Source: Eubacteriales bacterium
Lineage (GTDB): Bacteria; Bacillota; Clostridia; Oscillospirales; CAG-272
DNA: 64,000 nucleotides
Assembly (NCBI GenBank): GCA_045533675.1
Contig: JAZSIF010000054.1
Location: forward strand, 27,287-91,286
Direction: 5' to 3'
The position numbers and the translations under genes were made by a program. Shown piece by piece: positions 4,975 through 58,322 of the stretch (the stretch's first letter is position 1; every line of letters starts with the position of its first letter). Under the pieces are notes generated by a model, which was given only the letters and a program-made list of their open reading frames with translations, did not search any database and was not told the DNA's origin.

Positions 4975-5021
4975 AATAAGTACCTCATATATAGTATTAC
5001 AGTGGTCTTGTTTTTGCTATA

Positions 5022-38182: not shown

Positions 38183-38185
38183 ATT

Positions 38186-38261
38186 TGGCAGGGGCAGGAG
38201 GATTCGAACCCGCGACCCACGGTTTTGGAGACCGGTACTCTACCAGCTGAGCTATACCCCT
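38186..38261 (-). tRNA. tRNA-Trp(CCA)
   Basis: AGGGGTATAGCTCAGCTGGTAGAGTACCGGTCTCCAAAACCGTGGGTCGCGGGTTCGAATCCTCCTGCCCCTGCCA. Confidence 0.96.
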
Positions 38262-38419
38262 GTGTCATAAGACCAAGTTATTATATCATAACTTCTGCCG
38301 ATTTGCAAGGGGTTTTTAAAAAATATTAAAATTTTTTTCTTTCGTTTCTTTTTGGTTGACTTTACCATCTGGATATGATAAAATGAAATAGTAAGATGTT
38401 TCAAAAAGGATGTATTGAT

Positions 38420-39811: not shown

Positions 39812-39824
39812 TTAAAATCATGAA

Positions 39825-39897
39825 AAGAAATCCGTCGGCAGCGTGCGTAAGCAACGCGGTCCGACGGATTTCTTATATAAGAACAGTGGGATGCGGG
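39825..39897. repeat. Palindromic element, copy 4 (core hairpin plus outer-flank remnant)
   Basis: AAGAAATCCGTCGG...CCGACGGATTTCTT, then GGGATGCGGG (reverse complement of the flank of copies 1 and 2). Confidence 0.75.
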
Positions 39898-39908
39898 CGA
39901 AGTTTCTC

Positions 39909-39937
39909 TTGACTTTTTGCCCGTTTTGTGGTATAAT
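39909..39937 (+). promoter_or_regulatory. Sigma-A promoter of putative toxin mRNA
   Basis: TTGACT, 17 bp, TG-n-TATAAT. Confidence 0.75.
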
Positions 39938-40045
39938 ATAAAAGGCAAAAGCCCGAGAGGCGCCATGATTTTTGGCGGTTGCTTCCCCCAATTTTTGAGG
40001 GAAAGCAGATTTCTTTTTGCCTTCCCTTGCGGGGAGGTGATGCCT

Positions 40046-40129
40046 ATGTACTTGACGATCGAGCAACTGTTCCTGATAGCGGGATTTGTTCTTGCCCTGT
40101 TGACCTACATCGACCATAAAAAGAAATAA
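40046..40129 (+). CDS. Putative type I toxin, 27-aa holin-like membrane peptide (MYLTIEQLFLIAGFVLALLTYIDHKKK)
   Basis: GGAGGTGATGCCTATG SD context, a single TM helix and a basic C-terminus. Confidence 0.75.
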   Translation: MYLTIEQLFLIAGFVLALLTYIDHKKK

Positions 40130-40202
40130 CCGCCCACTCTTCGAAACCGTGGCGGTTATTTTTTAACGAAACGGGAAGCGACCGACATGGATGCCTCTCT
40201 TC
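40120..40202 (-). ncRNA. Putative antisense antitoxin sRNA (~80 nt)
   Basis: Convergent TTGACA (40237-40232), 17 bp, TATAAT (40214-40209); terminator AAATAACCGCC..GGCGGTTATTT with a U-tract on the minus strand; ends approximate. Confidence 0.65.
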
Positions 40203-40235
40203 TCTCTTATTATACACCAAAATAGGGAATTTGTC

Positions 40236-40270
40236 AAGAGCCTTTTCCGATCTGTGAGAAGGCTCTTTTT
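40236..40270 (+). terminator. Terminator of putative toxin mRNA
   Basis: AAGAGCCTTTTC..GAGAAGGCTCTT followed by TTT. Confidence 0.65.
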
Positions 40271-40412
40271 GTGTGTCAAAGAAAAGAAACTTGGATGTTT
40301 TTCTTGACAATAGCCATAATTTATTGTATAATATAAGATGTCGGACTGTGTGTTTTAATGTGATATCGGTTTTGGGTATGCCGATCGTTTTTCGGTATAC
40401 GGAGGATATAAA

Positions 40413-40991
40413 ATGAAATCAAGGGAATCACTTGTCAAAAACATAGTGATCATCAGTCTCTGTGTTTTGCTGGCGGCTTCTGCCGTCTTTGTCATATCCG
40501 GATGGATAGGCGGTCATTTTGAGGATTTTGACTCATTTCGCGCCTATGTGGCATCCTATGGAATGTGGGGGCCCGTTGTCCTTACCCTTATTCAAATGCT
40601 TCAGGTTATCTTGCCTGTGCTTCCCGGATTTTTGGGTTGTATCGTGGGAGCGGTACTGTTCGGGACCTTTGGCGGCTTTATGGTCAACTATATCGGTATC
40701 TGTGCCGGCTCGATCATTTCTTACTTCTTGGCAAGGAAGTTTGGCATTCAGCTGGTAAATAAAATGGTGTCCATGAAGAAATATGAGAAGTATATTGATA
40801 AGATCAATCGGAGTAAGAGCTATACCGTTCTTTTGTTTTTGGTGATCCTTCTGCCTCTGGCACCCGATGACTTTTTCTGTTATTTTTCGGGATTGATTGA
40901 CATGAAACCTAAAAAGTTTATTACGATCATTCTTGTCGGAAAACCATGGTGCATTCTGTTTTACAGCATCTTTTCCGCATATCTGATTTAA
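40413..40991 (+). CDS. TVP38/TMEM64 (VTT/DedA) family membrane protein
   Basis: QVILPVLPG, YFLARKFG, PLAPDDFFCYFSG. Confidence 0.88.
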   Translation: MKSRESLVKNIVIISLCVLLAASAVFVISGWIGGHFEDFDSFRAYVASYGMWGPVVLTLIQMLQVILPVLPGFLGCIVGAVLFGTFGGFMVNYIGICAGSIISYFLARKFGIQLVNKMVSMKKYEKYIDKINRSKSYTVLLFLVILLPLAPDDFFCYFSGLIDMKPKKFITIILVGKPWCILFYSIFSAYLI

Positions 40992-41006
40992 ACGTGGGAG
41001 GAAGAA

Positions 41007-41627
41007 ATGATAGGATATTATAATTATACGGTGATCCTTACCTACGTGGGAGCCATGTTTGGTTTTGCGGGGATCGTAAGCGCATGGGCGGGAAATCTCA
41101 GACTTGCGCTGATCTGCCTTTTGTTTGCGGGACTTTGCGACATGTTTGACGGAAAGATCGCCTCCACCAGAAAGCGTACGAAGGAGGAGAAGCACTTCGG
41201 AATCGAAATCGACTCTTTGAGTGACGTGATCTGCTTCGGTGTTCTGCCCTCCCTGATCATCTTCCATTGCAGCGGCAGAAATCTTTGGTTTGCCCCCATC
41301 TGCGCCCTGTATATGCTCTGCGCCCTCATTCGTCTGGCTTGGTTCAATGTGGACGAGGGAAAGCGTCAGGAAACCGAGGACGGTGCCCGTAAGACCTATC
41401 TCGGTCTGCCCGTGACCACCTCCACGCTGCTCATCCCCTTTGCGGTCTCTCTTTTGAATCTGTTACATATTGACATGAGATACGTGGCACCCTGGGTGCT
41501 TCTGTGCATGGGTATTGCGTTTTTGACCCCCTTCCGTCTGCCCAAGCCCCACATGGTGGGCAAGATCGTGATGACGTTGATCGGAGTTGGCTGCCTGGTG
41601 ATCGTTCTTTTGGGTGTACCCGCATGA
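41007..41627 (+). CDS. pssA: CDP-diacylglycerol--serine O-phosphatidyltransferase
   Basis: DMFDGKIA...G.EIDSLSD CDP-alcohol motif, RLAWFN, GLP; adjacent to psd. Confidence 0.82.
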   Translation: MIGYYNYTVILTYVGAMFGFAGIVSAWAGNLRLALICLLFAGLCDMFDGKIASTRKRTKEEKHFGIEIDSLSDVICFGVLPSLIIFHCSGRNLWFAPICALYMLCALIRLAWFNVDEGKRQETEDGARKTYLGLPVTTSTLLIPFAVSLLNLLHIDMRYVAPWVLLCMGIAFLTPFRLPKPHMVGKIVMTLIGVGCLVIVLLGVPA

Positions 41628-42445
41628 AAAACACATCGGGATCGGTGGACTTCCTTTACGGAACCGGCTTGGGGCGAGGAATCCTAAAGATTGTTATGTG
41701 CTTACATCTGGATCGTGTTGCCGTTTGGTTTTTGCGGTCGTTTCTTTCCAAACCCATGATTGGTCGCTACGCACGAAAAAACGGGATTGCTCTTAGCGAA
41801 GCGCAAAGAAAAGCCTTTGGCTCTTATCGGGATTTCTTTGTGAGGATGAGGGATGATTTGGAGATCGATATGACACCCGACCATTTGATCAGCCCCTGCG
41901 ACGGCTGGCTGAGCGCGTTTAAAATTGATAAAGAACAGGTCTTTTCCATCAAAAAATCCCACTATCGGGTCAGCGATTTTTTAAAAGACGAGGCGCTGGC
42001 GGAGCGGTACCGCGGCGGGACGCTGCTGGTTTTTCGGCTTTGCGCGTCGGACTATCACCATTATTGCTACATTGACGATGGGCACGTGGGGGAAAACCAC
42101 CCCATTCCCGGTGTGCTGCACAGTGTACAGCCCATCGCCTGCGAGACCTATCCCATCTACGTGCTGAACAAGCGCAGCTGGTGTCTGCTTGAGACCGAGC
42201 ATTTTGGCTCTGTGGTCCAGTGTGAGATCGGCGCTTTGGTGGTTGGCGGCATCGCTAACGAGAAAGAGAACGCCCGTTTTCGCAAGGGAGAGGAAAAAGG
42301 ACATTTTGAGCTGGCAGGCTCCACCATTGTATTGCTCCTTGAGCAAGGAAAAATCGCCCTTAATTCGGAGATCGAAAAAGCTCTCTCGGAAAGTGAGGAG
42401 ACTCGTGTGCTCCTCGGTCAATGGATCGGCGTGGCGAACAAATGA
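41624..42445 (+). CDS. psd: Phosphatidylserine decarboxylase
   Basis: FFVR, SPCDG, RLCASDYHHY, GHFELAGSTIV self-cleavage motif. Confidence 0.92.
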   Translation: MKNTSGSVDFLYGTGLGRGILKIVMCLHLDRVAVWFLRSFLSKPMIGRYARKNGIALSEAQRKAFGSYRDFFVRMRDDLEIDMTPDHLISPCDGWLSAFKIDKEQVFSIKKSHYRVSDFLKDEALAERYRGGTLLVFRLCASDYHHYCYIDDGHVGENHPIPGVLHSVQPIACETYPIYVLNKRSWCLLETEHFGSVVQCEIGALVVGGIANEKENARFRKGEEKGHFELAGSTIVLLLEQGKIALNSEIEKALSESEETRVLLGQWIGVANK

Positions 42446-44625: not shown

Positions 44626-45711
44626 TTATTTCACGGAGAATATTTTCAGGATCTTACAGTCGGACGAGGTGTAGCCCTCCGAGTCTCCGTACGTTACGCT
44701 CAGCCTAAAGCTGTGCGTTCCGTATTCCAGATCGTCGGCAAACTTCACGGCGTTGGTAAAGTTCTCCTCCGGTACCCACCAGCTTCTCTCAAAGCTGTAT
44801 TCCTGCCATTCTCCGTCGTCGATGGCGTAGAGGATCTTTCCCGTGGACTTACCGTAGTTGAACACAAGGCAGAGACCTCTTCCCTCAAACTCAAAGGACA
44901 GGGAATCGTGGAGACCGCAGGTGTAAAGCGCTTCGCGGAACCAAGGAATGAATACCTCTCGCTCCACGGACCACGAGCCCTCGGTCTTGACCCGATCAAA
45001 GGTGATCTCCTCGGTATTCTGCCAGTTCATTTTATGAAGCGCCTCGGGCAGGTTCTGTCCCTTCGGCATTGGGACGCAGTCGGTTCTTACCAGCTCGTCC
45101 TCAAGATATTCGATCACCTTCTCAGCATAGAAATAGCTTCCAAGATTCTGCGGATGAGTCCCGTCGGGGAGCCACATTTTCCACGGGATCATTCCTCTTT
45201 TCACTCGGTCATATGCGGCATTTGCCATGTATATCGAGCTGATGCCGTAGTGCTCGGCAAGCTTCTCAAAATCGGCGATCGAGTCAGGGAGCTCGCCCTG
45301 ATCCGCTTGCTTGAACATATTCTGATAGAAGGTATAGACAATTACAACATCAATGTTTGCGGCAAGCAGCTTTCTTATAAGTCCTTCTCTTGTTCTCATT
45401 CGTTCGTCACGGTCCACGCCGTGATCGTTTACCGCGTATTCAACAAACACAAGGTCACAGGATGTTTCAATAAATTCTTTTTCTGCCAGCGAAAGAGCAC
45501 AGAGACTTCCTGTTGCACCGATTGCGGCGTTGGCAACGGTAAGTCGAATGCCCTTAAACCGATCAACAAACCAGCCTCTGATGTAGGTCGGCCAGTTGCT
45601 TTGCGTTCTTGCCGTGGTGATTGAGCCTCCCGCAAAACCTATTTTCACCTTTCCGTTCCTGATTCCCTCTTTTAGTCTCGTAAGATTTCCTCTCAGGTTG
45701 ATATCGTTCAT
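44626..45711 (-). CDS. SGNH/GDSL hydrolase with C-terminal beta domain
   Basis: GGSIT, GATGS, EYAVND, DGTHP blocks; RBS AGGAGG. Confidence 0.88.
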   Translation of the reverse strand: MNDINLRGNLTRLKEGIRNGKVKIGFAGGSITTARTQSNWPTYIRGWFVDRFKGIRLTVANAAIGATGSLCALSLAEKEFIETSCDLVFVEYAVNDHGVDRDERMRTREGLIRKLLAANIDVVIVYTFYQNMFKQADQGELPDSIADFEKLAEHYGISSIYMANAAYDRVKRGMIPWKMWLPDGTHPQNLGSYFYAEKVIEYLEDELVRTDCVPMPKGQNLPEALHKMNWQNTEEITFDRVKTEGSWSVEREVFIPWFREALYTCGLHDSLSFEFEGRGLCLVFNYGKSTGKILYAIDDGEWQEYSFERSWWVPEENFTNAVKFADDLEYGTHSFRLSVTYGDSEGYTSSDCKILKIFSVK

Positions 45712-45919: not shown

Positions 45920-45953
45920 AAAAAATACCACCCCGAGAGGGGGTGGTATTTTT
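45920..45953 (-). terminator. Intrinsic terminator, probably the displaced original tmRNA terminator
   Basis: AAAAATACCACCCC-gagag-GGGGTGGTATTTTT immediately after the CCACCA duplicate on the minus strand. Confidence 0.75.
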
Positions 45954-46064
45954 TGGTGGAGCAGGTGTCGTCATAGACGAACCCCCCTCCTTTCCTTCAT
46001 TTTCGCCTTCAAAGGCTTCTTCAATCTCGTCAAGCGGGATATTGTCGATATTCGTAACAGACCT
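45954..46064 (-). pseudogene. Putative C-terminal remnant of a large serine recombinase
   Basis: Open frame RSVTNIDNIPLDEIEEAFEGENEGKEGGSSMTTPAPP ending in the att core; the rest of the gene is absent. Confidence 0.55.
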
Positions 46065-46231
46065 TTAACTATCCTTCAATGGATTGCTCGGTTTGACTAT
46101 CGGTGAAATATCCGATGCCGTCTTGTTCTGCACTCATCAAGGTAAATGAAAAGAAACGCCTTGAAGTATTTACACTTTTGTGGTATAATGAGGTGAATAT
46201 GCAAGCAATGCAAGGAGAGGAGGACTTGTAT

Positions 46232-47155
46232 ATGAATATTCTACATATGAAATATGCAGTTGAAGTTGCAAGGCTTGGATCGCTGAACAAGGCGGCGGAA
46301 ACGCTTATGATTGCACAACCGAATATCAGCCGATCTATCAAAGAGCTCGAAGCTGATCTTGGAATCACCATATTCCAACGAAGCGCGAAAGGAATGGTTT
46401 TAACTCCCGATGGCGAGACATTTATGGATTATGCGCGTGATATTCTTCGCCGTATCGATAAAATCGAGCAATCCTACCGCGACGGATCGCATAAAAAGCG
46501 TAACTTTTCAATCTCCGTTCCACGCGCGTGCTATATTTCTGCCGCAATGGCGGAATTTTCAAAAAACATCGGAGATGCGCCCGTGGAAATATACTACAAG
46601 GAAACCAACTCCAAAAAGACCATAAAAAAGCTTCTCGAAAACGAATACAAGCTCGGTATCATTCGTTACTCGGATAACTATGATAAATATTACAAGGATA
46701 TGCTTGAGGAAAAAGGACTTTCTTATGAACTTGTGGCAGAGTTCTCCTACGTTCTTCTTATGAGTAAGGAAAACCCTCTCGCTACCAAGGAAACGATTAC
46801 TTATGAAGATCTTTCCGATTATATCGAGATTGCGCACGCAGATCCTTACGTTCCCACACTTTCTATGTCCAAGGTGTTCCGTGAGGAGCTTCCCGACAAG
46901 GTGAATCAAAGAATATTTGTCTTTGAACGAGCAAGTCAGTTCGATCTGCTCTCCGAGAATCCCAAAACCTTTATGTGGGTATCGCCTGCCTCACAGCAGA
47001 TACTCGATAGATATAGCCTTGTTCAGCGTGTGTGCGAGGGCAATAAAAAGGTATATAGAGATATTCTGATTTATCATAAAGGATATAAGCTTACAAAGCT
47101 TGATAAGGATTTCATTACCGCGCTTTGTAATGCAAGAAGGAAGTTTGTTAAGTAA
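46232..47155 (+). CDS. LysR-family transcriptional regulator
   Basis: GSLNKAAETLMIAQPNISRSIKELEADLG..IFQRS..GMVLT. Confidence 0.93.
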   Translation: MNILHMKYAVEVARLGSLNKAAETLMIAQPNISRSIKELEADLGITIFQRSAKGMVLTPDGETFMDYARDILRRIDKIEQSYRDGSHKKRNFSISVPRACYISAAMAEFSKNIGDAPVEIYYKETNSKKTIKKLLENEYKLGIIRYSDNYDKYYKDMLEEKGLSYELVAEFSYVLLMSKENPLATKETITYEDLSDYIEIAHADPYVPTLSMSKVFREELPDKVNQRIFVFERASQFDLLSENPKTFMWVSPASQQILDRYSLVQRVCEGNKKVYRDILIYHKGYKLTKLDKDFITALCNARRKFVK

Positions 47156-47363
47156 ATAGAATGATTACGAGAGGGGTAACCGTTATAATGACACGCACAC
47201 CTTCTCCATCACCCCAAACAATACAATTCCATAGAATGCGTAAGCAGTTTTGTCAGCTTGATGAAACTGCTTATTTTTATTGATAACGCATTTATCGATT
47301 ATGGTTATATCGATACGCATAATACCGATATAACTTTTTAATAATTCCCAAGAAGCAAAATGT

Positions 47364-47381
47364 GTGTTAGAATATTAACGA
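47364..47381 (+). promoter_or_regulatory. Putative Rex operator
   Basis: GTGTTAG-AATA-TTAACGA, 11/14 to the clostridial consensus TTGTTAA-N4-TTAACAA, just upstream of the rex RBS. Confidence 0.65.
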
Positions 47382-47401
47382 TGAAAACAAGGAGGTGGAA
47401 A

Positions 47402-48019
47402 ATGAACGGATATTCTATCCCCAAGGCAACACTTGGGAGGCTTCCGCTGTACTTACAGTATCTGAAAAGCTTAGCTGCCGTAAAGGGTGCGACGATTTCA
47501 GCAACGGCAATCGCCAAAGGTCTTTCTCTTGGCGAAGTTCAGGTGCGCAAGGATCTTGCGGCTGTCAGCGGTGCAGGCAAGCCCAAGATTGGTTATGAAA
47601 CCGATAAATTGATTACCGACCTTGAGAGCCATCTCGGGTATGAGAGGCTGACGAATGCGGTTCTCGTAGGAGCAGGAAAGCTCGGCAGAGCGCTTCTTGA
47701 TTACGACGGCTTCGAGGATTTTGGAGTGAAGATCGTTGCAGGCTTTGACTGTAACGAAACGGCACTAAAGAAAGATACAAAGGATATACTGCCCATCAGA
47801 GATATCGGAGCTTACTGTCGGGAACACGACGTAAAGCTCGGAATTATCACAGTAGGACAAGGCTCGGCGCAGGACGTTTGCGATAAGCTCGTGGAAAGCG
47901 GCATTGAAGCGATATGGAATTTCGCTCCCGTTACCCTAAAAGTGCCAAACGGAGTACTTCTCAAGCAAGAGAATTTAGCGTTATCCCTCGCATATCTCAA
48001 CAACCAAATCGGTAAATAA
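47402..48019 (+). CDS. rex: Redox-sensing transcriptional repressor Rex
   Basis: IPKATLGRLPLY, QVRKDL, GKPKIGY, GAGKLGRAL, IWNFAP. Confidence 0.95.
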   Translation: MNGYSIPKATLGRLPLYLQYLKSLAAVKGATISATAIAKGLSLGEVQVRKDLAAVSGAGKPKIGYETDKLITDLESHLGYERLTNAVLVGAGKLGRALLDYDGFEDFGVKIVAGFDCNETALKKDTKDILPIRDIGAYCREHDVKLGIITVGQGSAQDVCDKLVESGIEAIWNFAPVTLKVPNGVLLKQENLALSLAYLNNQIGK

Positions 48020-48038
48020 TTTTTAGGAGGACATAAAA

Positions 48039-50735
48039 ATGGAACTCAAAACCTATCAGATCGTAGACAGTGTAGAAGCATTGCACGAAGCGCTCGCTCG
48101 TGTAAGAGCGGCACAGAGGGTTTTTGCAGCCTACACGCAGGAGCAGGTCGACAAGATCTTTTTGGCAGCGGCATCTGCTGCGGATAAGGCAAGAATCAGC
48201 CTTGCAAAGCTTGCTGTTGAGGAAACCGGTATGGGTATTGTAGAGGATAAGGTGATCAAGAATCACTACGCAGCAGAATACATCTATAATGCTTACAAGG
48301 AAACCAAGACCTGCGGTGTTATAGAAGAAGATAAGGCATACGGCATCAAGAAGATTGCCGAGCCGATCGGTGTTGTTGCCGCAGTTATTCCTACTACCAA
48401 CCCCACCTCTACCGCTATTTTCAAGTGCTTGCTCGCGCTCAAGACTCGTAACGCCATTATTATCAGCCCTCACCCCAGAGCAAAGAATTCCACCATTGCG
48501 GCTGCAAAGCTTGTTCTTGAAGCAGCGGTAGCAGCAGGCGCCCCCGAAGGAATCATCGATTGGATCGACGTTCCTTCGCTCGACATGACCAACACGGTTA
48601 TGAAGGAAGCAGACATCATCCTTGCGACCGGTGGTCCCGGAATGGTCAAGGCTGCATACTCCAGCGGTAAGCCCGCTCTCGGCGTTGGCGCAGGTAACAC
48701 TCCCGCAATCATCGATGAAACCGCAGACATTCTCCTTGCGGTTAACTCGATCATTCACTCTAAGACCTTCGATAACGGTATGATCTGTGCTTCCGAGCAG
48801 TCTGTTATCGTTCTTGAAAGCATCTACGATATTGTTAAGGCAGAGTTCGCCGCAAGAGGATGCTATTTCCTTGATCCTATTGAGACCGAAAAGGTTCGTA
48901 AGACTATTATCATAAATGGTGGGCTTAACGCGAAGATCGTTGGTCAGAAGGCGGCTAAGATCGCTGAGCTTGCAGGCGTAACCGTTCCCGCAGGCACTAA
49001 GATCCTCATCGGTGAGGTTGAGAGCGTTGAGCTTTCCGAGGAATTTGCTCACGAGAAGCTCTCTCCCGTACTTGCTATGTATAAGGCTACGACCTTTGCA
49101 GAAGCTCTTGACAAGGCAGATAAGCTTGTTGAGGACGGCGGCTTTGGTCACACTTCCTCTCTCTACATCAACGAGATCACGGAAAAGGAAAAGCTTGCCG
49201 CTTATGAGGCAAGAATGAGAACCTGCCGTATTCTCGTTAACACTCCCTCCGCTCACGGCGGTATCGGTGACCTTTACAACTTCAAGCTCGCTCCCTCGCT
49301 TACGCTTGGATGCGGCTCTTGGGGCGGTAACAGCGTATCCGAGAACGTAGGTGTCAAGCACCTGCTCAACATTAAAACAGTAGCCGAGAGGAGAGAAAAT
49401 ATGCTTTGGTTCAGAACACCTGAGAAGGTTTACATCAAGAAGGGTTGCCTCCCCGTAGCTCTCGATGAGCTCAGAACCGTCAGAGGCGCAAAGAAGGCGT
49501 TCATCGTAACCGACACCTTCCTTTATCAGAACGGCTACACAAAGCCGATCACCGACAAGCTCGACGAGATGGGCGTTCAGCACACCACCTTCTTCAATGT
49601 ACAGCCCGATCCTACGCTTGCAAACGCAACCGAGGGGGCAACTCAGATGAGAGCATTCCAGCCCGATACCATTATCGCACTCGGCGGCGGTTCCGCTATG
49701 GATGCTGCAAAGATCATGTGGGTACTCTACGAGCACCCGGAGGCAGACTTTATGGATATGGCGATGAGATTTATCGATATCCGTAAGAGAATCTACACCT
49801 TCCCGAAGATGGGTGAGAAGGCATACTTCATCGCAATCCCCACCTCCGCAGGTACGGGCTCTGAGGTAACTCCTTTCGCAGTCATTACCGACGAAAAGAC
49901 CGGCGTTAAGTATCCCCTTGCTGACTACGAGCTTCTTCCCAATATGGCAATCATCGACACCGATTTCCATATGTCCGCTCCCCGTGGACTTACCGCGGCT
50001 TCGGGTATCGACGCAGTAACTCACGCAGTTGAGGCGTATGCGGCTATGCTCGCAACCGATTATACTGACGGTCTTGCTCTTCAGGCACTTAAGAATATCT
50101 TCAAGTATCTTCCCAGAGCTTACGACAACGGTCAGACCGACGTTGAAGCTCGTGAGAAGATGGCAAACGCCGCTACGATGGCAGGTATGGCTTTTGCAAA
50201 CGCATTCCTCGGCGTATGTCACTCCATGGCTCACAAGCTCGGCGCATTCCACCATCTCCCCCACGGCGTTGCAAACGCTCTGATGATCGAAGAGGTTCTC
50301 AGATTCAATGCTGCAGAGGCTCCCGCAAAGATGGGTACCTTCTCGCAGTACGATCATCCTCATACTCTTGCAAGATACGCTGAGATCGCTGATTACCTTG
50401 GCATCAAGGGTGCAAACGACGAAGAGAAGCTCGAAGGTCTTATCAAGGCGATCAACGACCTCAAGGCTCGCGTTGGAATCAAGGAGACCATCAAGGACTA
50501 CGGCATTGATGAGAACGATTTCCTTGCTCGCCTCGACGACATGGTAGAGCAGGCGTTCGACGACCAATGCACCGGCGCGAACCCCCGTTATCCTCTTATG
50601 AGTGAGATCAAGCAGATGTACCTTAACGCCTACTACGGCAAGCACTTTGTTGAGGAGGCTATGCCCGCTACCGATCTGGATGAGGCAAAGCATGATCCCA
50701 TCAAGGCTCCCTACCGCAAGGGCAAAAAGGCATAA
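48039..50735 (+). CDS. adhE: Bifunctional acetaldehyde-CoA/alcohol dehydrogenase
   Basis: PTTNPTST, ICASEQ, HEKLSP, LGCGSWGGN, GGGSAMD, HSMAHKLG. Confidence 0.98.
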   Translation: MELKTYQIVDSVEALHEALARVRAAQRVFAAYTQEQVDKIFLAAASAADKARISLAKLAVEETGMGIVEDKVIKNHYAAEYIYNAYKETKTCGVIEEDKAYGIKKIAEPIGVVAAVIPTTNPTSTAIFKCLLALKTRNAIIISPHPRAKNSTIAAAKLVLEAAVAAGAPEGIIDWIDVPSLDMTNTVMKEADIILATGGPGMVKAAYSSGKPALGVGAGNTPAIIDETADILLAVNSIIHSKTFDNGMICASEQSVIVLESIYDIVKAEFAARGCYFLDPIETEKVRKTIIINGGLNAKIVGQKAAKIAELAGVTVPAGTKILIGEVESVELSEEFAHEKLSPVLAMYKATTFAEALDKADKLVEDGGFGHTSSLYINEITEKEKLAAYEARMRTCRILVNTPSAHGGIGDLYNFKLAPSLTLGCGSWGGNSVSENVGVKHLLNIKTVAERRENMLWFRTPEKVYIKKGCLPVALDELRTVRGAKKAFIVTDTFLYQNGYTKPITDKLDEMGVQHTTFFNVQPDPTLANATEGATQMRAFQPDTIIALGGGSAMDAAKIMWVLYEHPEADFMDMAMRFIDIRKRIYTFPKMGEKAYFIAIPTSAGTGSEVTPFAVITDEKTGVKYPLADYELLPNMAIIDTDFHMSAPRGLTAASGIDAVTHAVEAYAAMLATDYTDGLALQALKNIFKYLPRAYDNGQTDVEAREKMANAATMAGMAFANAFLGVCHSMAHKLGAFHHLPHGVANALMIEEVLRFNAAEAPAKMGTFSQYDHPHTLARYAEIADYLGIKGANDEEKLEGLIKAINDLKARVGIKETIKDYGIDENDFLARLDDMVEQAFDDQCTGANPRYPLMSEIKQMYLNAYYGKHFVEEAMPATDLDEAKHDPIKAPYRKGKKA

Positions 50736-50753
50736 TTAAAGGAGGAAATCAAA

Positions 50754-51503
50754 ATGAATCTTGATAGAGTAATTGCAGTAAGAAATAACAAGACCATCTA
50801 CCGTGACGGCGACAGATGTATTAAAGTATTTAACGCAGAATATTCCAAGGCAGACGTGCTGAACGAAGCGCTCAATCAGGCAAGAATCGAGGAAACCGGA
50901 CTGAATATCCCCAAGGTTCTTGAGGTTACTATGATCGACGGCAAGTGGGCAATCGTTTCCGAGTATATCAAGGGAAAGACTCTTGCACAGCTTATGGAAG
51001 AAAATCCCGAGAAGAAAGCTGAATACATCGAGCTTCTCGTTGATCTTCAGATGAGTGTTCACGCAAAAACATCGCCTCTTCTTAATAAACTGAAGGATAA
51101 GATGAACCGCAAGATCGCCGAGACCGAGTTTGATGCTACCACCCGTTACGATCTTCACACTCGCCTTGAAGGTATGCCCAAGCATAATAAGGTGTGCCAC
51201 GGCGACTTCAACCCCTCCAACATTATTATCACCGAAAACGGTCTCCCTTACATTCTCGACTGGTCTCACGCAACGCAGGGTAACGCATCTGCTGATGTGG
51301 CGCGCACTTATCTTCTGTTCTGGTTGAATGGAGATATCACCGGGGCTGAGATCTACCTCGATACCTTCTGCAAGAAGAGCGATACCGCAAAGCAGTACGT
51401 TCAGAAGTGGATGCCCATCGTTGCTGCATCGCAGTCGGTTAAGGGCAACGAAAAGGAGCGCGAGTTCCTTATGAGCTGGGTCGGCGTTGTCGATTATCAA
51501 TAA
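50754..51503 (+). CDS. APH/protein-kinase-like phosphotransferase
   Basis: CIKVF, CHGDFNPSNII, ILDW. Confidence 0.85.
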   Translation: MNLDRVIAVRNNKTIYRDGDRCIKVFNAEYSKADVLNEALNQARIEETGLNIPKVLEVTMIDGKWAIVSEYIKGKTLAQLMEENPEKKAEYIELLVDLQMSVHAKTSPLLNKLKDKMNRKIAETEFDATTRYDLHTRLEGMPKHNKVCHGDFNPSNIIITENGLPYILDWSHATQGNASADVARTYLLFWLNGDITGAEIYLDTFCKKSDTAKQYVQKWMPIVAASQSVKGNEKEREFLMSWVGVVDYQ

Positions 51504-51521
51504 TTCAGTTTCAAAATTAAT

Positions 51522-51549
51522 GCTTGATGCGGCAAGTCCGCGTCAAGCT
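51522..51549 (+). other. Intra-operon stem-loop without a U-tract
   Basis: GCTTGATGCGG-caagt-CCGCGTCAAGC. Confidence 0.5.
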
Positions 51550-51582
51550 CCCATATTTACGAATTAAGAGAGGTAAAATATT

Positions 51583-51825
51583 ATGCTTAAAATTACAGTT
51601 TGTATCGGAAGCTCCTGCCACATCAAGGGTTCTCGTCAGGTAGTAGAGCAGCTTCAGTATTTGATCGCTGAGAACAATCTCGGTGATAAGGTAGAGCTTG
51701 GCGGCACCTTCTGCATGGGCAAGTGTCAGCAGGGCGTATGTGTAACGGTAAATGACTCCTTCCATTCCGTTACCCCCGACAGTGTAGGAGAGTTCTTCGC
51801 TAAAGAAGTGCTCGCGAAGGTATAA
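51583..51825 (+). CDS. Thioredoxin-like [2Fe-2S] ferredoxin (HfsA-like), copy 1
   Basis: VCIGSSCHIKGS...FCMGKC. Confidence 0.88.
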   Translation: MLKITVCIGSSCHIKGSRQVVEQLQYLIAENNLGDKVELGGTFCMGKCQQGVCVTVNDSFHSVTPDSVGEFFAKEVLAKV

Positions 51826-51829
51826 GAGT

Positions 51830-52093
51830 ATGTTGTTCGTTCAGGTTTGTGTTGGCTCATCTTGCCACCTCAAGGGATCTCAGGATATTGTCGATCTCTT
51901 TGAAAAAGCCGTGGAGGAACATCACATTGAAGATGAGGTCGTGCTTTCCGGTAGCTTTTGCATCGGAAAGTGCAACCGCGTCGGTGTTACCGTTCAGGTG
52001 AATGATGATATTCACGTTGGTGTTACAAGAGAGAATTTCAGAGAATTTTTTAAGAAAAATATACTCGATGTGATCGAAAATGAAAGGAAGTGA
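51830..52093 (+). CDS. Thioredoxin-like [2Fe-2S] ferredoxin (HfsA-like), copy 2
   Basis: VCVGSSCHLKGS...FCIGKC. Confidence 0.88.
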   Translation: MLFVQVCVGSSCHLKGSQDIVDLFEKAVEEHHIEDEVVLSGSFCIGKCNRVGVTVQVNDDIHVGVTRENFREFFKKNILDVIENERK

Positions 52094-52095
52094 CG

Positions 52096-53778
52096 ATGAT
52101 GGCAAATTGCTTGACACTTAAAAAATCAAACTGCAAAAACTGCTATAAGTGCATCCGTCACTGCCCCGTAAAGGCAATTCGCTTTTCGGGAAACCAAGCT
52201 CATATCATCGGCAATGAGTGCATTTTGTGCGGTCATTGTTTTGTTGTTTGTCCGCAAAATGCCAAGGAGATCGTAGACAGTACCGAAAAGGCTCGCGTTC
52301 TTCTTCAAAGCGGAGATCCCGTCGTTGTCAGCCTTGCGCCTTCCTTTATTGCCAATTATGACGGCGTCGGAATTGAATCAATGCGTAAAGCACTGAAAAA
52401 GCTTGGCTTTTTCGACGTAGAGGAAACGGCTATCGGTGCAACCATTGTGAAAACCGAGTACGAGCGTATGCTGCGTGAGGAAGAAAGAGATATTATCATT
52501 ACCTCATGCTGCCACTCTATCAATTTGCTCATACAAAAGCATTTTCCCTCTGCTCTTGAATATCTTGCAGACCTTATGTCTCCTATGCAGGCTCACTGCG
52601 CGGATATCAAGAGAAGAATGCCGAACGCCAAGACTGTTTTTGTCGGTCCTTGTGTAGCAAAGAAGGACGAGGCTGAGTACTATGAAGGGCTCGTTGATGC
52701 CGTTCTTACCTTTGAAGAGCTCACCAATTGGCTAAAATCCGAGAGAATTGAGCTTGAAAGGGATGTTGATAATACACCGCAGAGCCGTGCTCGTTTCTTC
52801 CCAACAACAGGCGGCGTGCTGAAAACAATGGCGCAGAATGCTCCCGGATATACTTATATTGCGCTTGATGGCGTTGAAAACTGTATTGCCGCTCTTAAAG
52901 ATATTGAGAGCGGGAATATCCATAAGTGTTTCATTGAAATGTCCGCCTGCGTTGGTAGCTGTATTGGCGGTCCCGTTATGGAAAAATACCATAGCACCTC
53001 GCCAATTAAGGATTACGTAACCGTGGCTGATTATGCAGGTGAGCATGATTTCGAGGTCGAACAGCCTGCTCCTATGGATCTGAAAAAGCATTTTACTATG
53101 ATCGAGCGCAAGCTCGCAGAGCCTTCGGAAAACGAGATTATGACAGTTCTTCGTCAGATGGGCAAGTTCAAGCCCGCAGATGAGCTTAATTGCGGCTCTT
53201 GCGGATACAATTCTTGTCGTGAAAAAGCAATCGCCATTATTCAGGGCAAGGCTGAAAGTTCTATGTGTCTGCCGTTCCTCAAGGATAGGGCGGAAAGCTT
53301 CTCGGATACCATCGTTAAGAATACACCGAACGGTCTTATCGTTCTGAACGAAAATCTGGAGGTTCAGCAGATCAATAATGCGGCGAGAAAAATTATGAAT
53401 ATCCGTGCGGCATCCGACGTGCTCGGAGAGCCTGTTGTTCGCATTCTCGATCCTACTGTATTTGTTCAGGTCAGAAACAGCGGACGAACGGTCAGAGATC
53501 AGCGCACGTATCTTGCAGAATACAAAAAATACGTGGAGCAGACCGTTGTTTACGACTCCGAGTCTCATATGCTCATCGGCATCATGCGTGATATTACCGA
53601 AGAAGAAGCCGACAGAGAGAAAAAAGCAAGGATCAATAAGCAGACCGTTGAGGTTGCCGATACCGTGGTAGAAAAGCAGATGCGGATTGTTCAGGAGATC
53701 GCTTCTCTGCTCGGAGAGACCGCCGCGGAGACCAAGATCGCGCTAACCAAGCTAAAGGAGTCGATCAGCGATGAATGA
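52096..53778 (+). CDS. PAS-domain sensory [FeFe]-hydrogenase (HydS/HfsB-like, group C)
   Basis: 2x[4Fe-4S] N-terminus; TSCCHS, GPCVAKK, EMSAC.GSC; FeS motif CGSCGYNSC; PAS domain; KQMRIVQEIASLLGE tail. Confidence 0.9.
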   Translation: MMANCLTLKKSNCKNCYKCIRHCPVKAIRFSGNQAHIIGNECILCGHCFVVCPQNAKEIVDSTEKARVLLQSGDPVVVSLAPSFIANYDGVGIESMRKALKKLGFFDVEETAIGATIVKTEYERMLREEERDIIITSCCHSINLLIQKHFPSALEYLADLMSPMQAHCADIKRRMPNAKTVFVGPCVAKKDEAEYYEGLVDAVLTFEELTNWLKSERIELERDVDNTPQSRARFFPTTGGVLKTMAQNAPGYTYIALDGVENCIAALKDIESGNIHKCFIEMSACVGSCIGGPVMEKYHSTSPIKDYVTVADYAGEHDFEVEQPAPMDLKKHFTMIERKLAEPSENEIMTVLRQMGKFKPADELNCGSCGYNSCREKAIAIIQGKAESSMCLPFLKDRAESFSDTIVKNTPNGLIVLNENLEVQQINNAARKIMNIRAASDVLGEPVVRILDPTVFVQVRNSGRTVRDQRTYLAEYKKYVEQTVVYDSESHMLIGIMRDITEEEADREKKARINKQTVEVADTVVEKQMRIVQEIASLLGETAAETKIALTKLKESISDE

Positions 53779-54943
53779 TTTGTGTGCAGATATTGGATAT
53801 AAGAGCATCAATCACGATGGCGAAGTGCTGTGTGGGGATCACGTAGATGTTATCGAAGAAACCGAAAACTCCACCGTCATCGTGCTGGCAGACGGTCTTG
53901 GATCGGGAGTAAAAGCGAGTATTCTTTCTACCCTCACCTCTAAAATCATCTCCACGATGATGGCGGCGGGACTTCCCGTTGAGGAGTGTGTCTCTACCAT
54001 CGCCGCAACCCTTCCCGTTTGTTCGGTGCGCGGCGTGGCATACTCCACGTTTACCATCATTCATCTTCTCAATAATGAAATCGCCGAGATCATTCAATAC
54101 GATAATCCGCACGTCATTATTATCAGAAACTACGCGCCATACGATTATCCAAAGACAGAAATGAACATTGGCGGCAAGAAAATATACAAATCCACCATCA
54201 GATTGCAAGAAAACGACGTATTCATCGCCATGAGCGACGGATGCCCCCACGCGGGCATGGGCGGAAAATACAATTTCGGATGGAAGCGCGAAGATATTGC
54301 CGATTATATGCAAGCACTTGTTGCGGGCGGTTATACCGCAAAAAATCTCTCCACCATGCTCGTGGACGAATGTGATAAGCTTTACAATCATAAACCGGGA
54401 GACGATACCACTGCTTGCGTGGTAAAAATCCGAAAAAGAGAGCCAATGAACATTCTCTTCGGTCCTCCTTCCAACCGTGACGATGCCAACAGAATGATGT
54501 CCCTCTTCTTTTCCAAGGAAGGAAAGCACATTATCTGTGGCGGTACGACCTCGTTGATTGCATCAAAATATCTTGGCAAGCCCGTGAGAGCGAGCCTGAA
54601 TTTTGAGCGCAGTGACGTTCCCCCCATTGCCACCATTGAGGGCGTTGATCTTGTCACCGAAGGGGTTATCACGATGAACAAGGTCATTCAGTACGCCAAG
54701 GACTATCTTGGAGAAAATGTGCTCTACGAGGAATGGAATTTTAAAAAGGACGGAGCGTCGCTCATCAGCCGCCTGTTGTTTGAAGAGGCGACCGACATCA
54801 ACTTTTACGTGGGCAGAGCCGTAAATCCCGCCCATCAAAACCCCGATCTTCCGATCAACTTTAACATTAAAATGAATCTCGTTGAAGAACTTTCCAATTG
54901 CCTGAAAAAAATGGGCAAGCGGATCAAGGTAAGTTATTTCTGA
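53771..54943 (+). CDS. SpoIIE/PP2C-type Ser/Thr phosphatase (HfsC-like)
   Basis: CGD, LADGLGSG, MSDG, GDDTT. Confidence 0.9.
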   Translation: MNDLCADIGYKSINHDGEVLCGDHVDVIEETENSTVIVLADGLGSGVKASILSTLTSKIISTMMAAGLPVEECVSTIAATLPVCSVRGVAYSTFTIIHLLNNEIAEIIQYDNPHVIIIRNYAPYDYPKTEMNIGGKKIYKSTIRLQENDVFIAMSDGCPHAGMGGKYNFGWKREDIADYMQALVAGGYTAKNLSTMLVDECDKLYNHKPGDDTTACVVKIRKREPMNILFGPPSNRDDANRMMSLFFSKEGKHIICGGTTSLIASKYLGKPVRASLNFERSDVPPIATIEGVDLVTEGVITMNKVIQYAKDYLGENVLYEEWNFKKDGASLISRLLFEEATDINFYVGRAVNPAHQNPDLPINFNIKMNLVEELSNCLKKMGKRIKVSYF

Positions 54944-54959
54944 TATAAGGAGAAGGACA

Positions 54960-55907
54960 ATGCAGAAAAAAATAACAATCATAGGAGCAGGCTCGGTTGG
55001 TGCAACCACCGCATTTGCCCTGCTGACTCGCGGCGCGGCATCCGAGGTCGTGCTGATTGACATCAACACAGAAAAAGCACTTGGAGAGGCTTTGGATATT
55101 AAGCAGGCAACGCCGTTCATCGACAACTGCGACATCTACGCGGGAAGCTACGCCGATGCCGTCAATTCCGATGTGGTCGTCATCACCTCGGGAATCGGCA
55201 GAAAGCCCGGGCAGACGCGTCTGGAACTCGTACAAACCAACGTAGGAATTATAAAGTCCATTGCATCGGAGATCGTAAAATATGCTCCCAATGCCATTTA
55301 CATTCTCGTAGCAAACCCCGTGGACATTCTAACATATGCATTTCTGAAATATACGGGACTCCCCAAGAATCGTGTATTTGGCACGGGTACGGTTCTCGAT
55401 ACCATCCGTCTGCGCACCCGTCTTGCTGAGATCTACAACGTCAACAAGCAACAGGTACACGCTAACGTTCTTGGTGAGCACGGAGATACCTCATTTGTAT
55501 CCTGGTCCAACGCAACCATTGCAGGAGTACCCCTTGATGAATACAGACAGTCTGTGGTTACACCCTCAAGTATTCCCACTGAATATACACGCACAGATAT
55601 TGAGACCTACGTAAAAAAATCAGGAGGAAAGATCATATCTCGCAAGGGCTGTACCGTTTACGGTATCGGAATGTCCACAACACATATTATAAAGACCCTT
55701 AGCGGAAACTCAGAAACCGCTCTTACGGTATCGTCATTGCACGAGGGCGAATACGGAATACACGACGTTTGTCTGAGTTCGCTCACTCTTGTTGACAGCA
55801 ATGGAGTAAGATCTATAATCACACAGAAGCTTGCCGATGAGGAAATAGCAAAGCTCCATGCATCTGCAAAGGCTCTTTCCGATGTTATCAAAAGCGCCGG
55901 TATTTAA
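54960..55907 (+). CDS. L-lactate/malate dehydrogenase family protein
   Basis: GAGSVG, GRKPGQTRLEL, ANPVD, GTVLDTIR, LGEHGD. Confidence 0.9.
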   Translation: MQKKITIIGAGSVGATTAFALLTRGAASEVVLIDINTEKALGEALDIKQATPFIDNCDIYAGSYADAVNSDVVVITSGIGRKPGQTRLELVQTNVGIIKSIASEIVKYAPNAIYILVANPVDILTYAFLKYTGLPKNRVFGTGTVLDTIRLRTRLAEIYNVNKQQVHANVLGEHGDTSFVSWSNATIAGVPLDEYRQSVVTPSSIPTEYTRTDIETYVKKSGGKIISRKGCTVYGIGMSTTHIIKTLSGNSETALTVSSLHEGEYGIHDVCLSSLTLVDSNGVRSIITQKLADEEIAKLHASAKALSDVIKSAGI

Positions 55908-55938
55908 GAGTAGGCGCAAGTCAGGAGTATAAGTATAT

Positions 55939-57369
55939 ATGAGAAGATTTGACACAAAGGTTCAACATCTTAAATATAGGGTCTTACGCGAAGTAGCACG
56001 CCTCGCGTGGGAGGATAAATTACTGGAGAATATTATGGATATTCCCCAGCGTCTCGTTCCTGGAAATGAGCCTACGATGCGTTGCTGTGTTTATAAGGAA
56101 CGTGCAATTCTCGGTGAGCGCGTGAAGCTCGCTATGGGTGGTGACAAAAACAATCCCAATGTTATCGAGGTCATTGAGATTGCTTGCGACGAGTGTCCCG
56201 TGGGCGGTTACGAAGTCACCAATGCCTGCCGCGGATGTCTTGCTCACCGTTGTGAGGACGTTTGTAAATTCGGAGCGATCTCCTTCGATCACAATCATGT
56301 TGCACATATAGATAAATCCAAATGTAAAGAGTGCGGTGCGTGTGCAAAGGTTTGTCCTTATACCGCAATCGTCAGCCGCAAGCGTCCGTGTCAGAATGCT
56401 TGTAAGGTCAAGGCGATTTCAATGAATGATGAAAAGGCTGCATGTATTGACAACTCCAAGTGCATTCAGTGCGGAGCTTGCGTCTATCAGTGTCCCTTCG
56501 GCGCCATTATGGATAAATCCTATATGGTGAACGCCATCGATATTCTCAAAAAGAGTAATCGTAACACACGGGGCGGTAACTATAAGGTCTATGCCGTTGT
56601 CGCACCGTCCATTTCAAGCCAATTCTCTTACGCAAAGCTTGGTCAGGTGGTAACAGGCCTCAAAAAGCTCGGCTTCCACGATGTGATAGAAGCTGCGCTC
56701 GGCGCTGACATGGTAGCTATGGCAGAAGCAAAAGAACTGTCCGAGAAAGGACTTCTTACAAGCTCTTGCTGTCCTGCATTCGTGCAGTACATAAAGTCGA
56801 CGTTCCCGAATCTCGTAGAGCATATTTCACATAATATGTCGCCTATGGCTGTGCTGGCAAAGTACATCAAGGAAACAACTCCTACCGCAAAGGTAATCTT
56901 CATCGGTCCCTGTACCGCTAAAAAGGCAGAGGCACAGCTTGAAGAGGTCAAGCCATACGTTGATACCGTCCTTACGTTCGAAGAGCTTCAAGCGCTCTTT
57001 GACAGCCGTAACATAGAAATCGAAACGCTTGAAGAAGGCATTCTTGATAACGCATCTTATTTTGGACGCATTTTTGCAAGGAGCGGAGGACTGACCGATG
57101 CGGCAGCTCAGGCTATGAAAGAGCAAAACATCGACTTCGAGATCAAACCCGTTGTATGCGACGGTATCGAAGCTTGCCGTATGGCACTTCTCAAGCTGAA
57201 TAAGGGTATTCTTGATGGCAATTTCATCGAAGGAATGGCTTGTGTCGGCGGTTGCATTGGCGGCGCAGGCTGTCTGACTCACGGTGAAAAGAACAAATCC
57301 GAGGTCGATAAATACGGTCGTGAAGCACTTGAAAAAAATATCAGCGATTCCATATCGTTGCTGAAGTAA
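55939..57369 (+). CDS. Monomeric ferredoxin-dependent [FeFe]-hydrogenase (HfsD/HydA2-like)
   Basis: RCCVYKER, multiple 4Fe-4S motifs, TSCCPAF, GPCTAKK, EGMACVGGCIGG. Confidence 0.92.
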   Translation: MRRFDTKVQHLKYRVLREVARLAWEDKLLENIMDIPQRLVPGNEPTMRCCVYKERAILGERVKLAMGGDKNNPNVIEVIEIACDECPVGGYEVTNACRGCLAHRCEDVCKFGAISFDHNHVAHIDKSKCKECGACAKVCPYTAIVSRKRPCQNACKVKAISMNDEKAACIDNSKCIQCGACVYQCPFGAIMDKSYMVNAIDILKKSNRNTRGGNYKVYAVVAPSISSQFSYAKLGQVVTGLKKLGFHDVIEAALGADMVAMAEAKELSEKGLLTSSCCPAFVQYIKSTFPNLVEHISHNMSPMAVLAKYIKETTPTAKVIFIGPCTAKKAEAQLEEVKPYVDTVLTFEELQALFDSRNIEIETLEEGILDNASYFGRIFARSGGLTDAAAQAMKEQNIDFEIKPVVCDGIEACRMALLKLNKGILDGNFIEGMACVGGCIGGAGCLTHGEKNKSEVDKYGREALEKNISDSISLLK

Positions 57370-57380
57370 GAAATGCATGA

Positions 57381-57413
57381 AAAGGGTTTGCTGTCTGAGT
57401 GCGGCAAGCCCTT
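57381..57413 (+). terminator. Hairpin ending the hydrogenase operon
   Basis: AAGGGTTTGCTG...CGGCAAGCCCTT. Confidence 0.55.
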
Positions 57414-57418
57414 AACTT

Positions 57419-57835
57419 TTGAAAGGAAATATCAATTACAAGAAACATTTTTATAACGCAGATTTCCAAATCCGCAACATGAGCGATGCGATCTCTCACT
57501 CTACCTGCGGCATGGCAATCGACATTGAAGCCAAAGCCATTGTCGCTTGCTCACTTTCGGGAATGACAGCACGAATGGTGTCGCGCTTCCGTTCACCCGT
57601 TGCAATTATCGGTCTTACAACCAATGAGAATACATGGAGAAAGCTTGCGTTGTCTTGGGGAGTTATCCCCGCCATGTGCGAGAAATTCACATCTACCGAT
57701 GTATTGTTTTATACTGCAAAGAAGATTGCCTCAAAGGAGCTCGGCTTGTCTAAAAAGGATCGTATCGTCATCACCGGCGGAGATACCACAGGACATTCCG
57801 GCAATACAAATTTAATTAAGATTGACGAGATATAA
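57419..57835 (+). pseudogene. pyk: Pyruvate kinase C-terminal (alpha/beta) domain fragment
   Basis: DAISHS, AKAIV..SLSGMTARMVSRFR, LALSWGV, GNTNLIK; catalytic barrel absent; no clear RBS. Confidence 0.75.
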
Positions 57836-57845
57836 CCAAACATAA

Positions 57846-57882
57846 AAACGCCACCTTAGACTTTCATCTAAGATGGCGTTTT
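57846..57882. terminator. Bidirectional terminator serving tmRNA and the pyk fragment
   Basis: AAAACGCCACCTTAGA-ctttca-TCTAAGATGGCGTTTT. Confidence 0.8.
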
Positions 57883-57954
57883 CTGTTCGTATCAGAGCGA
57901 AACCTTGACGGTGAAGCCGCCGATAAAGAAGTAGGTGTTCGTCTGAGTAGCGTT

Positions 57955-58322
57955 TGGTGGACCCGAGGGGAGTCGAACCCCTGTCCGAAAACCTCTTGAT
58001 ATAACCTTCTCCGGGTGCAGTCTGTTATTTGGATTTCCCGTCCGATGCCGTCAACAGACAGACTTCATCCTCTGGTAGCCATTTTCTGCGTGATCGGTTC
58101 AATGGCGAACCGCCGATGCACGGGCATCGCTCATTTGACGCTCAGTCCCGAGCCGCGATACTCTCGGGAGGAACGGGCGGCTTATGCCGCGGCACTGCCC
58201 TTAGGCAGCCAATGCAACGTTTCTATCGTTAGCGTTTAATTTTAAGTTGGGCCGTTTCAGAGATTGCCCGGCTCTACCCGCTTATTATACCTCAAAATCC
58301 CCGTCGAAACCTTTACGGGCCC
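57955..58322 (-). ncRNA. ssrA: tmRNA, tag peptide (A)ANDRNVALAA
   Basis: 5' GGGCCCGTAAAGGTTTCGAC, 3' GACAGGGGTTCGACTCCCCTCGGGTCCACCA, G3:U pair, tag frame 58233-58201; next to smpB. Confidence 0.96.

Follow-up and report, generated by a model that had tools for sequence, protein, structure and literature searches.

Genomic islands inserted by serine recombinases at ssrA, the gene for transfer-messenger RNA (tmRNA), are already known from Dehalococcoides, where insertion takes place in the T-loop, a 20-bp repeat is formed, and the serine recombinases DsiB and DsiA are encoded (PMC3146451). For the LI integrase, Rutherford et al. 2013 place the zinc-ribbon motif at half-site positions 16 to 24 in the element's attachment site, attP, and at positions 11 to 19 in that of the host, attB (PMC3783163), and a hydrogen-sensing gene set has been proposed for Ruminococcus albus (PMC5707799). 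Here we describe a 12-kb stretch at the 3' end of ssrA in a 64,000-nucleotide segment of the Eubacteriales bacterium assembly GCA_045533675.1 (contig JAZSIF010000054.1, positions 27,287 to 91,286; the whole segment is here called the window). With a probability of about 0.85, this stretch is a decayed large serine recombinase (LSR) element that was inserted at the CCA end of ssrA and now carries a probably foreign fermentation cluster. The element family differs from the Dehalococcoides islands in cut position, core length, and host. A sequence-only reading of the same DNA had proposed an LSR element at the CCA end, an intact tmRNA, and a displaced terminator; this overall picture is supported, and the copy in the window is a dead remnant. 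The source genome, designated G000, is a metagenome bin of 64 contigs, the contig with the island is at least 91 kb long, and comparisons were made within a set of 72 genomes of the genus, G000 included.

The tmRNA gene, on the B side of attL (57955 to 58322, minus strand), is intact, as it was recognized both by ARAGORN (tag peptide ANDRNVALAA) and by Rfam (RF00023, 151 bits). The 9-mer TTTGGTGGA is present in exactly two copies in the window, at 45952 to 45960 and at 57953 to 57961. Both copies hold the core TCCACCA (minus strand), which was read directly in the sequence as the tmRNA end in attL (57955 to 57961) and as the attR copy (45954 to 45960). The island between the two junctions is 45961 to 57954. 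In shuffled windows, the 9-mer occurred in 0.55 copies on average, and 7 of 100 shuffles had two or more, and the two copies taken alone are thus weak evidence against chance. The repeat pattern is not due to chance, because the same left arm and core and the same right-end module recur in related genomes. The arm sequences are located at 57937 to 57944 (GTTCGTCT) and at 45975 to 45982 (AGACGAAC), and the tmRNA T-arm has a look-alike of them at 57971 to 57978 (AGTCGAAC); the island arm lies 14 nt from the core and the look-alike 9 nt from it. All of these coordinates and spacings, taken over from the sequence-only reading, were exact when read directly.

The left junction is marked by an orphan ssrA terminator (45920 to 45953, minus strand; -24.8 kcal/mol, z = -8.5) on the B' side of attR. 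The hairpin ends no gene now, because it is placed between two divergently transcribed genes, those for a GDSL protein (44626 to 45711, minus strand) and LysR (46234 to 47155, plus strand). A simple terminator scan of the window did not list it, and Rfam gave no match for it, for the right-end module, or for the conserved elements beyond the terminators of relatives; tmRNA alone was matched. By our own count, a terminator directly follows the CCA in 13 of 20 tmRNA loci of relatives, a layout that the orphan copy preserves. On the island side of the core is the P arm of the element (45961 to 45985, minus strand), which consists of a 14-nt spacer and GGGGTTCGTCT (45975 to 45985, half-site positions 16 to 26) and is 96% to 99% identical in four genomes of the same genus. 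The left arm and core (30 nt) were found without mismatch in 17 genome records, all bins of the ruminant-gut Clostridia type and including the four genus genomes already matched, and in two metagenome contigs, one of which duplicates a genome record. Together with the window, this gives 19 distinct left-arm junctions (the window, 17 genome records, and 1 additional metagenome contig), and in all 19 the DNA beyond the core is that of the host and contains a terminator hairpin, a different one in each. In 18 of them only a short A-rich run separates the hairpin from the core; in genome G056 it lies ~20 nt farther on. These junctions support the displacement of the ssrA terminator by the insertion.

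At the right junction, the P' end module (57840 to 57954, minus strand; 115 nt) contains the arm AGACGAACACC (57934 to 57944, half-site positions 17 to 27) and a terminator (57883 to 57844, -28.9 kcal/mol) that is predicted to end ssrA transcription now. This module was identified in 7 of the 71 other genomes of the genus, with identities of 93% to 96% in G056, G019, G011, G057, G079, and G010 and of 90% over 40 nt in G018. It directly follows the tmRNA TCCACCA in G010, G018, G019, and G057; in G056 it follows a second TCCACCA, 92 nt beyond the tmRNA end, in G079 the TCCACCA of tRNA-Ala(GGC), and in G011 a TCCACCA without a tRNA gene. The genes beyond the module terminator are different in each genome, and therefore the cargo starts there. 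The window has its own tRNA-Ala(GGC) gene (17487 to 17562), which is unoccupied and followed by its own terminator and has the same T-arm and TCCACCA end as the occupied site of G079, making it a potential second landing site for the element family.

Two pairs of occupied and empty sites were identified among the relatives. The DNA at the L074 junction is 96% identical over 128 nt to that following the unoccupied tmRNA of L004, and the L062 junction (on the same contig as L084) is 93% identical over 126 nt to the DNA downstream of the unoccupied tmRNA of L005. Every junction seen has only TCCACCA in common, as expected from the claim of insertion at the CCA end. The empty-site comparison by which the sequence-only reading could be judged thus came out positive in these relatives but gave no allele for the terminator of the species in question; the nearest to the window's own terminator at an empty site is a similar hairpin in G023.

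Remnants of an integrase gene were detected when bases 45961 to 46135 were compared with the 72 genomes. Bases 45961 to 46049 are 96% to 99% identical to sequences of G019, G010, G056, and G057. For bases 46048 to 46100, matches of 85% to 94% identity lie ~1.3 kb from there in G056, G010, and G057, and G003 is matched as well. The two matched places are separated by an open reading frame (ORF) of 509 amino acids (aa) with Resolvase, Recombinase, and Zn_ribbon_recom domains. Relative to the intact gene of G056, the window has a C-terminal fragment (45953 to 46049, minus strand; gene nucleotides 1405 to 1501, codons 469 to 501) with 93 of 97 nucleotides identical (96%; 93.75% over 32 aa by tblastn), which overlaps the P arm and the core and reads outward across the core, and an N-terminal fragment (46048 to 46100, minus strand; gene nucleotides 35 to 87, codons 12 to 29) with 49 of 53 nucleotides identical (92%), in which an in-frame stop replaces a Gln codon. 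Gene nucleotides 88 to 1404 (1,317 nt) and the first 34 nt are absent. The LSR gene of the window is a pseudogene directly at the left junction, and this copy is dead and unable to move by itself. The involvement of an LSR, which had been proposed from the form of the sites, is borne out by these two fragments immediately inside the left junction and by the three domains of their intact homologue. No recombinase, relaxase, or phage gene was recognized with Pfam among the 11 large plus-strand ORFs of the island (46103 to 57835), and the four Resolvase-domain genes of the genome are located on other contigs. A resident helper integrase acting in trans was considered as well and is unlikely, the best LSR of the genome itself being 40% identical.

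The whole element is found on one contig in G056 (C71, locus L058). There, tmRNA (1044 to 1410) is followed by a 92-nt insert, a second TCCACCA, and the 115-nt module as in the window. Then come cargo genes (type I restriction-modification parts, a Schlafen-like protein, and a gene pair for 284-aa and 1,016-aa proteins), genes for an actin-like protein, a MobA/VirD2 relaxase, ParB, and the integrase, an arm as in window bases 45961 to 45985, TCCACCA, and host DNA. With its LSR, relaxase, ParB, and actin-like protein, and with no type IV secretion system domain among the 10 largest ORFs (small ORFs were outside the scan), the ~15.8-kb element is a putative integrative mobilizable element (IME). 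The intact LSR (L058, 15854 to 17383) has the Resolvase catalytic domain (PF00239, 9.7e-27) followed by the Recombinase (PF07508, 8.7e-19) and zinc-ribbon (PF13408, 1.8e-08) domains, and its 509 aa are within the ~450 to 700 aa of LSRs. In every intact copy, the LSR gene overlaps the P arm and the core. The integrase is 97% to 99% identical in G057, G010, G003, and G019, where ParB and relaxase genes adjoin it whenever the contigs allow, and this near-identity across species points to a recent spread. Annotated phage and plasmid enzymes are at most ~44% identical to it, the best match being the Roseburia phage Shimadzu integrase (43.5%), and among solved structures there were good matches to N-terminal domains only (best, the TP901-1 integrase N-terminal domain, E = 4e-11). 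The cargo gene pair is conserved in the elements of G056 and G057 (L058, 7100 to 10986; L026, 12954 to 16846); the ~1,016-aa protein has a weak match to an RNA-dependent RNA polymerase domain (1e-09), and the pair, whose neighbors are genes for type I restriction-modification and a Schlafen-like protein, may constitute a defence system.

As in the Dehalococcoides ssrA islands, a serine recombinase (~540 aa there) is encoded beside the junction, the integration module includes a gene with a ParB domain, the metabolic cargo is variable, and direct repeats of the ssrA 3' end are present (PMC3146451). The Dehalococcoides islands encode the CcrB-like DsiB together with a second, small serine recombinase, DsiA, and they pile up in tandem. 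In contrast, the repeat here is only 7 to 9 bp long and its core, TCCACCA, is at the very 3' end of the gene, no second serine recombinase was found among the 10 ORFs scanned in the G056 element, tRNA-Ala is also targeted, and the host is a genus of ruminant-gut Clostridia.

Serine integrases tell attB from attP through the position of the motif for the zinc-ribbon domain. In the rebuilt attP, the arm GGTGTTCGTCT (GGGGTTCGTCT in the window) is followed by a 14-nt spacer, TCCACCA, a 10-nt spacer, and the arm AGACGAACACC; the arms are perfect over 11 bp in relatives and over 8 bp in the window, and they are 31 nt apart. The rebuilt site has the form of an LSR attP, which is ~50 bp long, has imperfect inverted arms around a central dinucleotide, and needs identity to attB only at the centre. 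Exchange is placed within TCCACCA because no other block is shared by all attL, attR, and empty sites, and the symmetry centre, on its first two or three bases, suggests a cut at 45959/45960. When half-site positions are counted outward from the T of TCCACCA, GG(G/T)GTTCGTCT occupies positions 16 to 26 in the left arm of attP, and the T-arm sequence GGGGTTCGACT of tmRNA (57971 to 57981, minus strand) occupies positions 11 to 21; the right arm of attP is at positions 17 to 27, one base off. On going from attP to attB, the motif is therefore shifted by 5 bp toward the centre, as the sequence-only reading had noticed, and the left half-sites agree exactly with the positions published for the LI integrase. 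We infer that the integrase reads the T-arm via its zinc-ribbon domain and that attP and attB would be recombined by this LSR; enzymes of this class make a 2-bp staggered cut and require a directionality factor for excision.

The family resembles the A118/LI-type phage integrases described by Rutherford et al. 2013 in the three domains, in the inverted-arm attP of ~50 bp, and in a distal motif (9 bp there) whose distance from the centre is 5 bp shorter in attB (PMC3783163). However, the protein is only distantly related to that type, and here the attB motif is provided by the T-arm, a structural element of an RNA, rather than by protein-coding DNA. Our literature search found no open-access full text stating a T-arm attB motif for a serine integrase; the supplements of att-site catalogues were outside this search.

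These observations can be brought together in the following scheme. An LSR-driven IME would insert within the last seven bases of ssrA, TCCACCA, with attB presenting the tmRNA T-arm as the attP arm motif, 5 bp nearer the centre. The tmRNA would stay whole, its own terminator would be pushed 12 kb away, to 45920 to 45953, and the 115-nt end module of the element would supply a new one. Decay, in whichever order its steps may have come, would have comprised the 1,317-nt deletion and the stop codon in the integrase gene, the loss of the first 34 nt of this gene and its promoter, and the loss of the relaxase and ParB backbone. What remains would be a hydrogen-sensing fermentation cluster, most likely from another species of the genus, and an ORF for a pyruvate kinase C-terminal domain.

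The cluster extends from 46131 to 57388 on the plus strand, its limits being those of homology with other species. Based on Pfam, it encodes LysR (46234 to 47155), Rex (47360 to 48019), AdhE (48039 to 50735), a Ser/Thr kinase-like protein (50754 to 51503), two thioredoxin-like 2Fe-2S ferredoxin ORFs (51583 to 52093), the PAS-containing [FeFe] hydrogenase HydS (52090 to 53778), a PP2C phosphatase (53771 to 54943), Ldh (54960 to 55907), and a second [FeFe] hydrogenase, HydA (55939 to 57369), all on the plus strand. The last ORF of the island (57419 to 57835, plus strand; 138 aa) has the pyruvate kinase C-terminal domain only (PK_C, 4e-35); its homologue was found in three of five genomes (G056, G005, and G087), always on a contig other than that of the cluster. 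An 898-aa ORF exactly antisense to AdhE (47997 to 50693, minus strand) has no Pfam match and is in all likelihood a shadow ORF rather than a true gene. Zheng et al. reportedly described, in 2014, a HydS, kinase, phosphatase, Rex, and AdhE hydrogen-sensing gene set in R. albus. The cluster appears similar to that set in that a PAS sensory [FeFe] hydrogenase is encoded beside kinase-like, PP2C, Rex, and AdhE proteins and a second [FeFe] hydrogenase. It differs from the R. albus set in being located between mobile-element junctions and in having a tree that conflicts with the host chromosome.

This conflict was seen when the cluster was compared with a gene in its flank. The flank gene (2.1 kb) of G000 is 88.5% identical to that of G005 and 86.5% identical to that of G055, whereas the identities with 13 others are 72% to 80%, and the flank-gene tree unites G000, G005, and G055 in one clade (support, 100). 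In the HydS-PP2C tree, however, G000 clusters with G074 and G052 (support, 99), and G005 clusters with G065 and G002 (support, 99). In approximately unbiased (AU) tests, the grouping of G000 with G005 was rejected for the cluster alignment (P = 0.0019), and that of G000 with G074 was rejected for the flank gene (P = 0.00025); the groups tested were named from prior identities, and the tests were run after the trees had been seen. We conclude that the cluster has a history different from that of its surroundings. The neighbors of the cluster differ in every species compared, with no shared flanks found by blastn (seven and six loci). Because of this history and its position inside the junctions, the interior cluster is probably cargo. 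In G056 there are two copies of the fermentation cluster (C99 and C35), 88% and 80% identical to that of the window; either one of them was acquired as a second copy, or the bin is a mixture of strains.

Several points weigh against the explanation by a decayed LSR element. The right half of attB, formed by the terminators, has no convincing arm motif, and the two arms of attP are 1 bp out of symmetry, as seen from the 31-nt spacer. Neither attP nor a circular form was found in two metagenome scans and one viral scan: the P' arm with the core had no matches in metagenome contigs, and the P arm with the core had two there, both integrated junctions, and none in viral contigs. No empty site for the window's own terminator was found among the 34 tRNA-like ends of the loci compared, and at the 12 other cluster loci checked, the neighborhood of the cluster contained no IME genes. 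In G005, the closest relative, a shorter cluster is also located between the same left flank and tmRNA, which fits poorly with a simple cargo history. Finally, the contig is from a metagenome bin, and its junctions are not bridged by public contigs. The search of sequencing reads has no weight either way: the best run contained 0.47 of the sampled words and the rest at most 0.11, and when four runs were compared with the window, only short contigs of mixed gut origin were obtained, with no join of 45953 to 57962 and neither junction bridged.

The alternative that survives best, although we consider it unlikely, is that the cluster has always been a native part of the chromosome between the left flank and ssrA, the ends of the remnant having been set around it later by deletions or rearrangements. 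It draws mainly on G005, in which the homologue of window bases 38184 to 42435 is joined directly to the genes from the ferredoxin to HydA (fdx-HydS-PP2C-Ldh-HydA, in the same orientation), with 4.4 kb from there to tmRNA, as well as on the lack of a mobility gene inside and of IME genes at the cluster loci of other species. The G+C content, which the sequence-only reading had pointed to as a means of telling the island from its surroundings, did not do so: it is alike inside and outside, with no step at the borders. This is in line with a native interior, but a flat profile tells nothing if the cluster came from within the genus. The HydS-PP2C tree and its AU test, on the other hand, separate G000 from G005, and the displaced terminator is on the left of the cluster, whereas a native cluster would be expected outside attR. 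The second closest relative, G055, shares the genes for a 655-aa protein and the GDSL protein but has no cluster in its assembly (82% complete). At the corresponding place G055 has another gene, with no terminator and no TCCACCA copy, and its tmRNA and GDSL contigs do not overlap. Moreover, variable cargo begins right past the P' terminator in this element family. It may simply be that DNA has been gained and lost repeatedly downstream of ssrA, making this region a hot spot.

It is far less probable that the contig was assembled as a chimera with its joint within the element, so that the true interior is different. The bin is fragmented into 64 contigs, the contigs of many relatives break ~50 to 600 nt after tmRNA, and the matching public contigs are short and bridge neither junction; however, the junctions, the LSR fragments, and the cluster are all well inside a contig of at least 91 kb, and decay of the pseudogene type (92% identity versus 97% to 99% among intact copies, plus a stop codon) is not expected from a chimera. 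That a classical tyrosine-integrase island at tmRNA made the repeats and that the serine recombinase fragments are bystanders is hardly credible, since, although insertions with longer repeats do exist at the tmRNA of relatives (L013 and L020), the island ORFs scanned gave no match to a Phage_integrase domain, there is no tyrosine recombinase among the 10 largest ORFs of the G056 element, it is the LSR gene that overlaps the P arm and core in every intact copy, the repeat is only 7 to 9 bp, and arms 31 nt apart are far wider than a tyrosine core site.

Other sequence features were observed at the tmRNA ends of relatives. Units of ~99 nt bounded by TCCACCA are located at or near the tmRNA end in G056 (L058, 1411 to 1509), L005 (~5450 to 5650), and L020 (~4967 to 5346); some are in tandem, and those in part of the L020 array are ~140 nt. 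Each unit closes with a GTTCGG-type motif 14 nt ahead of TCCACCA, as does the P arm, and the units may be either fused att scars left by a related integrase or nonautonomous mini-elements. In L004 (5900 to 6010), L005, L006, L018, L062, and L074, the tmRNA terminator is followed by an inverted duplicate of the 3' end of tmRNA (TGGTGGA...GGGGAGTCGAAC), accompanied by a conserved ~70-nt stretch that has its own hairpin and no Rfam match; in L006, the inverted T-loop copy covaries with tmRNA. The tmRNA of G004 (L013, 1522 to 2232) has a 710-nt insert flanked by a ~22-nt repeat that begins in the T-loop, and G021 (L020) has tandem copies of the last ~25 nt of the tmRNA gene and of the terminator. 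The tmRNA end is a hot spot with multiple users in this genus.

Returning to the LSR element, its interest rests in the element family and the logic of its attB, as the window copy is a fossil. We tentatively propose, at somewhat less than even odds, an integrase family of ruminant-gut Clostridia that uses the T-arm of tmRNA or tRNA-Ala as its attB motif, cuts in TCCACCA, thereby restoring the RNA gene through no more than seven shared bases, brings its own terminator, and moves redox modules between species. If this is true, each arm of the family's attP would carry a copy of the T-arm motif, displaced outward by 5 bp. The same motif would then be present at the attB spacing in an RNA gene and at the attP spacing in the element, making the attB/attP rule directly testable on a target present in every bacterium. 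An integrase that spares tmRNA and tRNA-Ala by inserting at the CCA end could be a landing tool in anaerobes that are hard to engineer, and in genome annotation, an orphan terminator preceded by TCCACCA can flag old islands that have lost their integrase. The modules moved would consist of the HydS sensor, kinase, phosphatase, Rex, AdhE, Ldh, and HydA, and hydrogen-sensing control of fermentation in the gut would be a horizontally traded trait. If the cluster is indeed cargo, small mobilizable elements can disseminate among gut Clostridia the control over how much hydrogen, ethanol, and lactate is produced.

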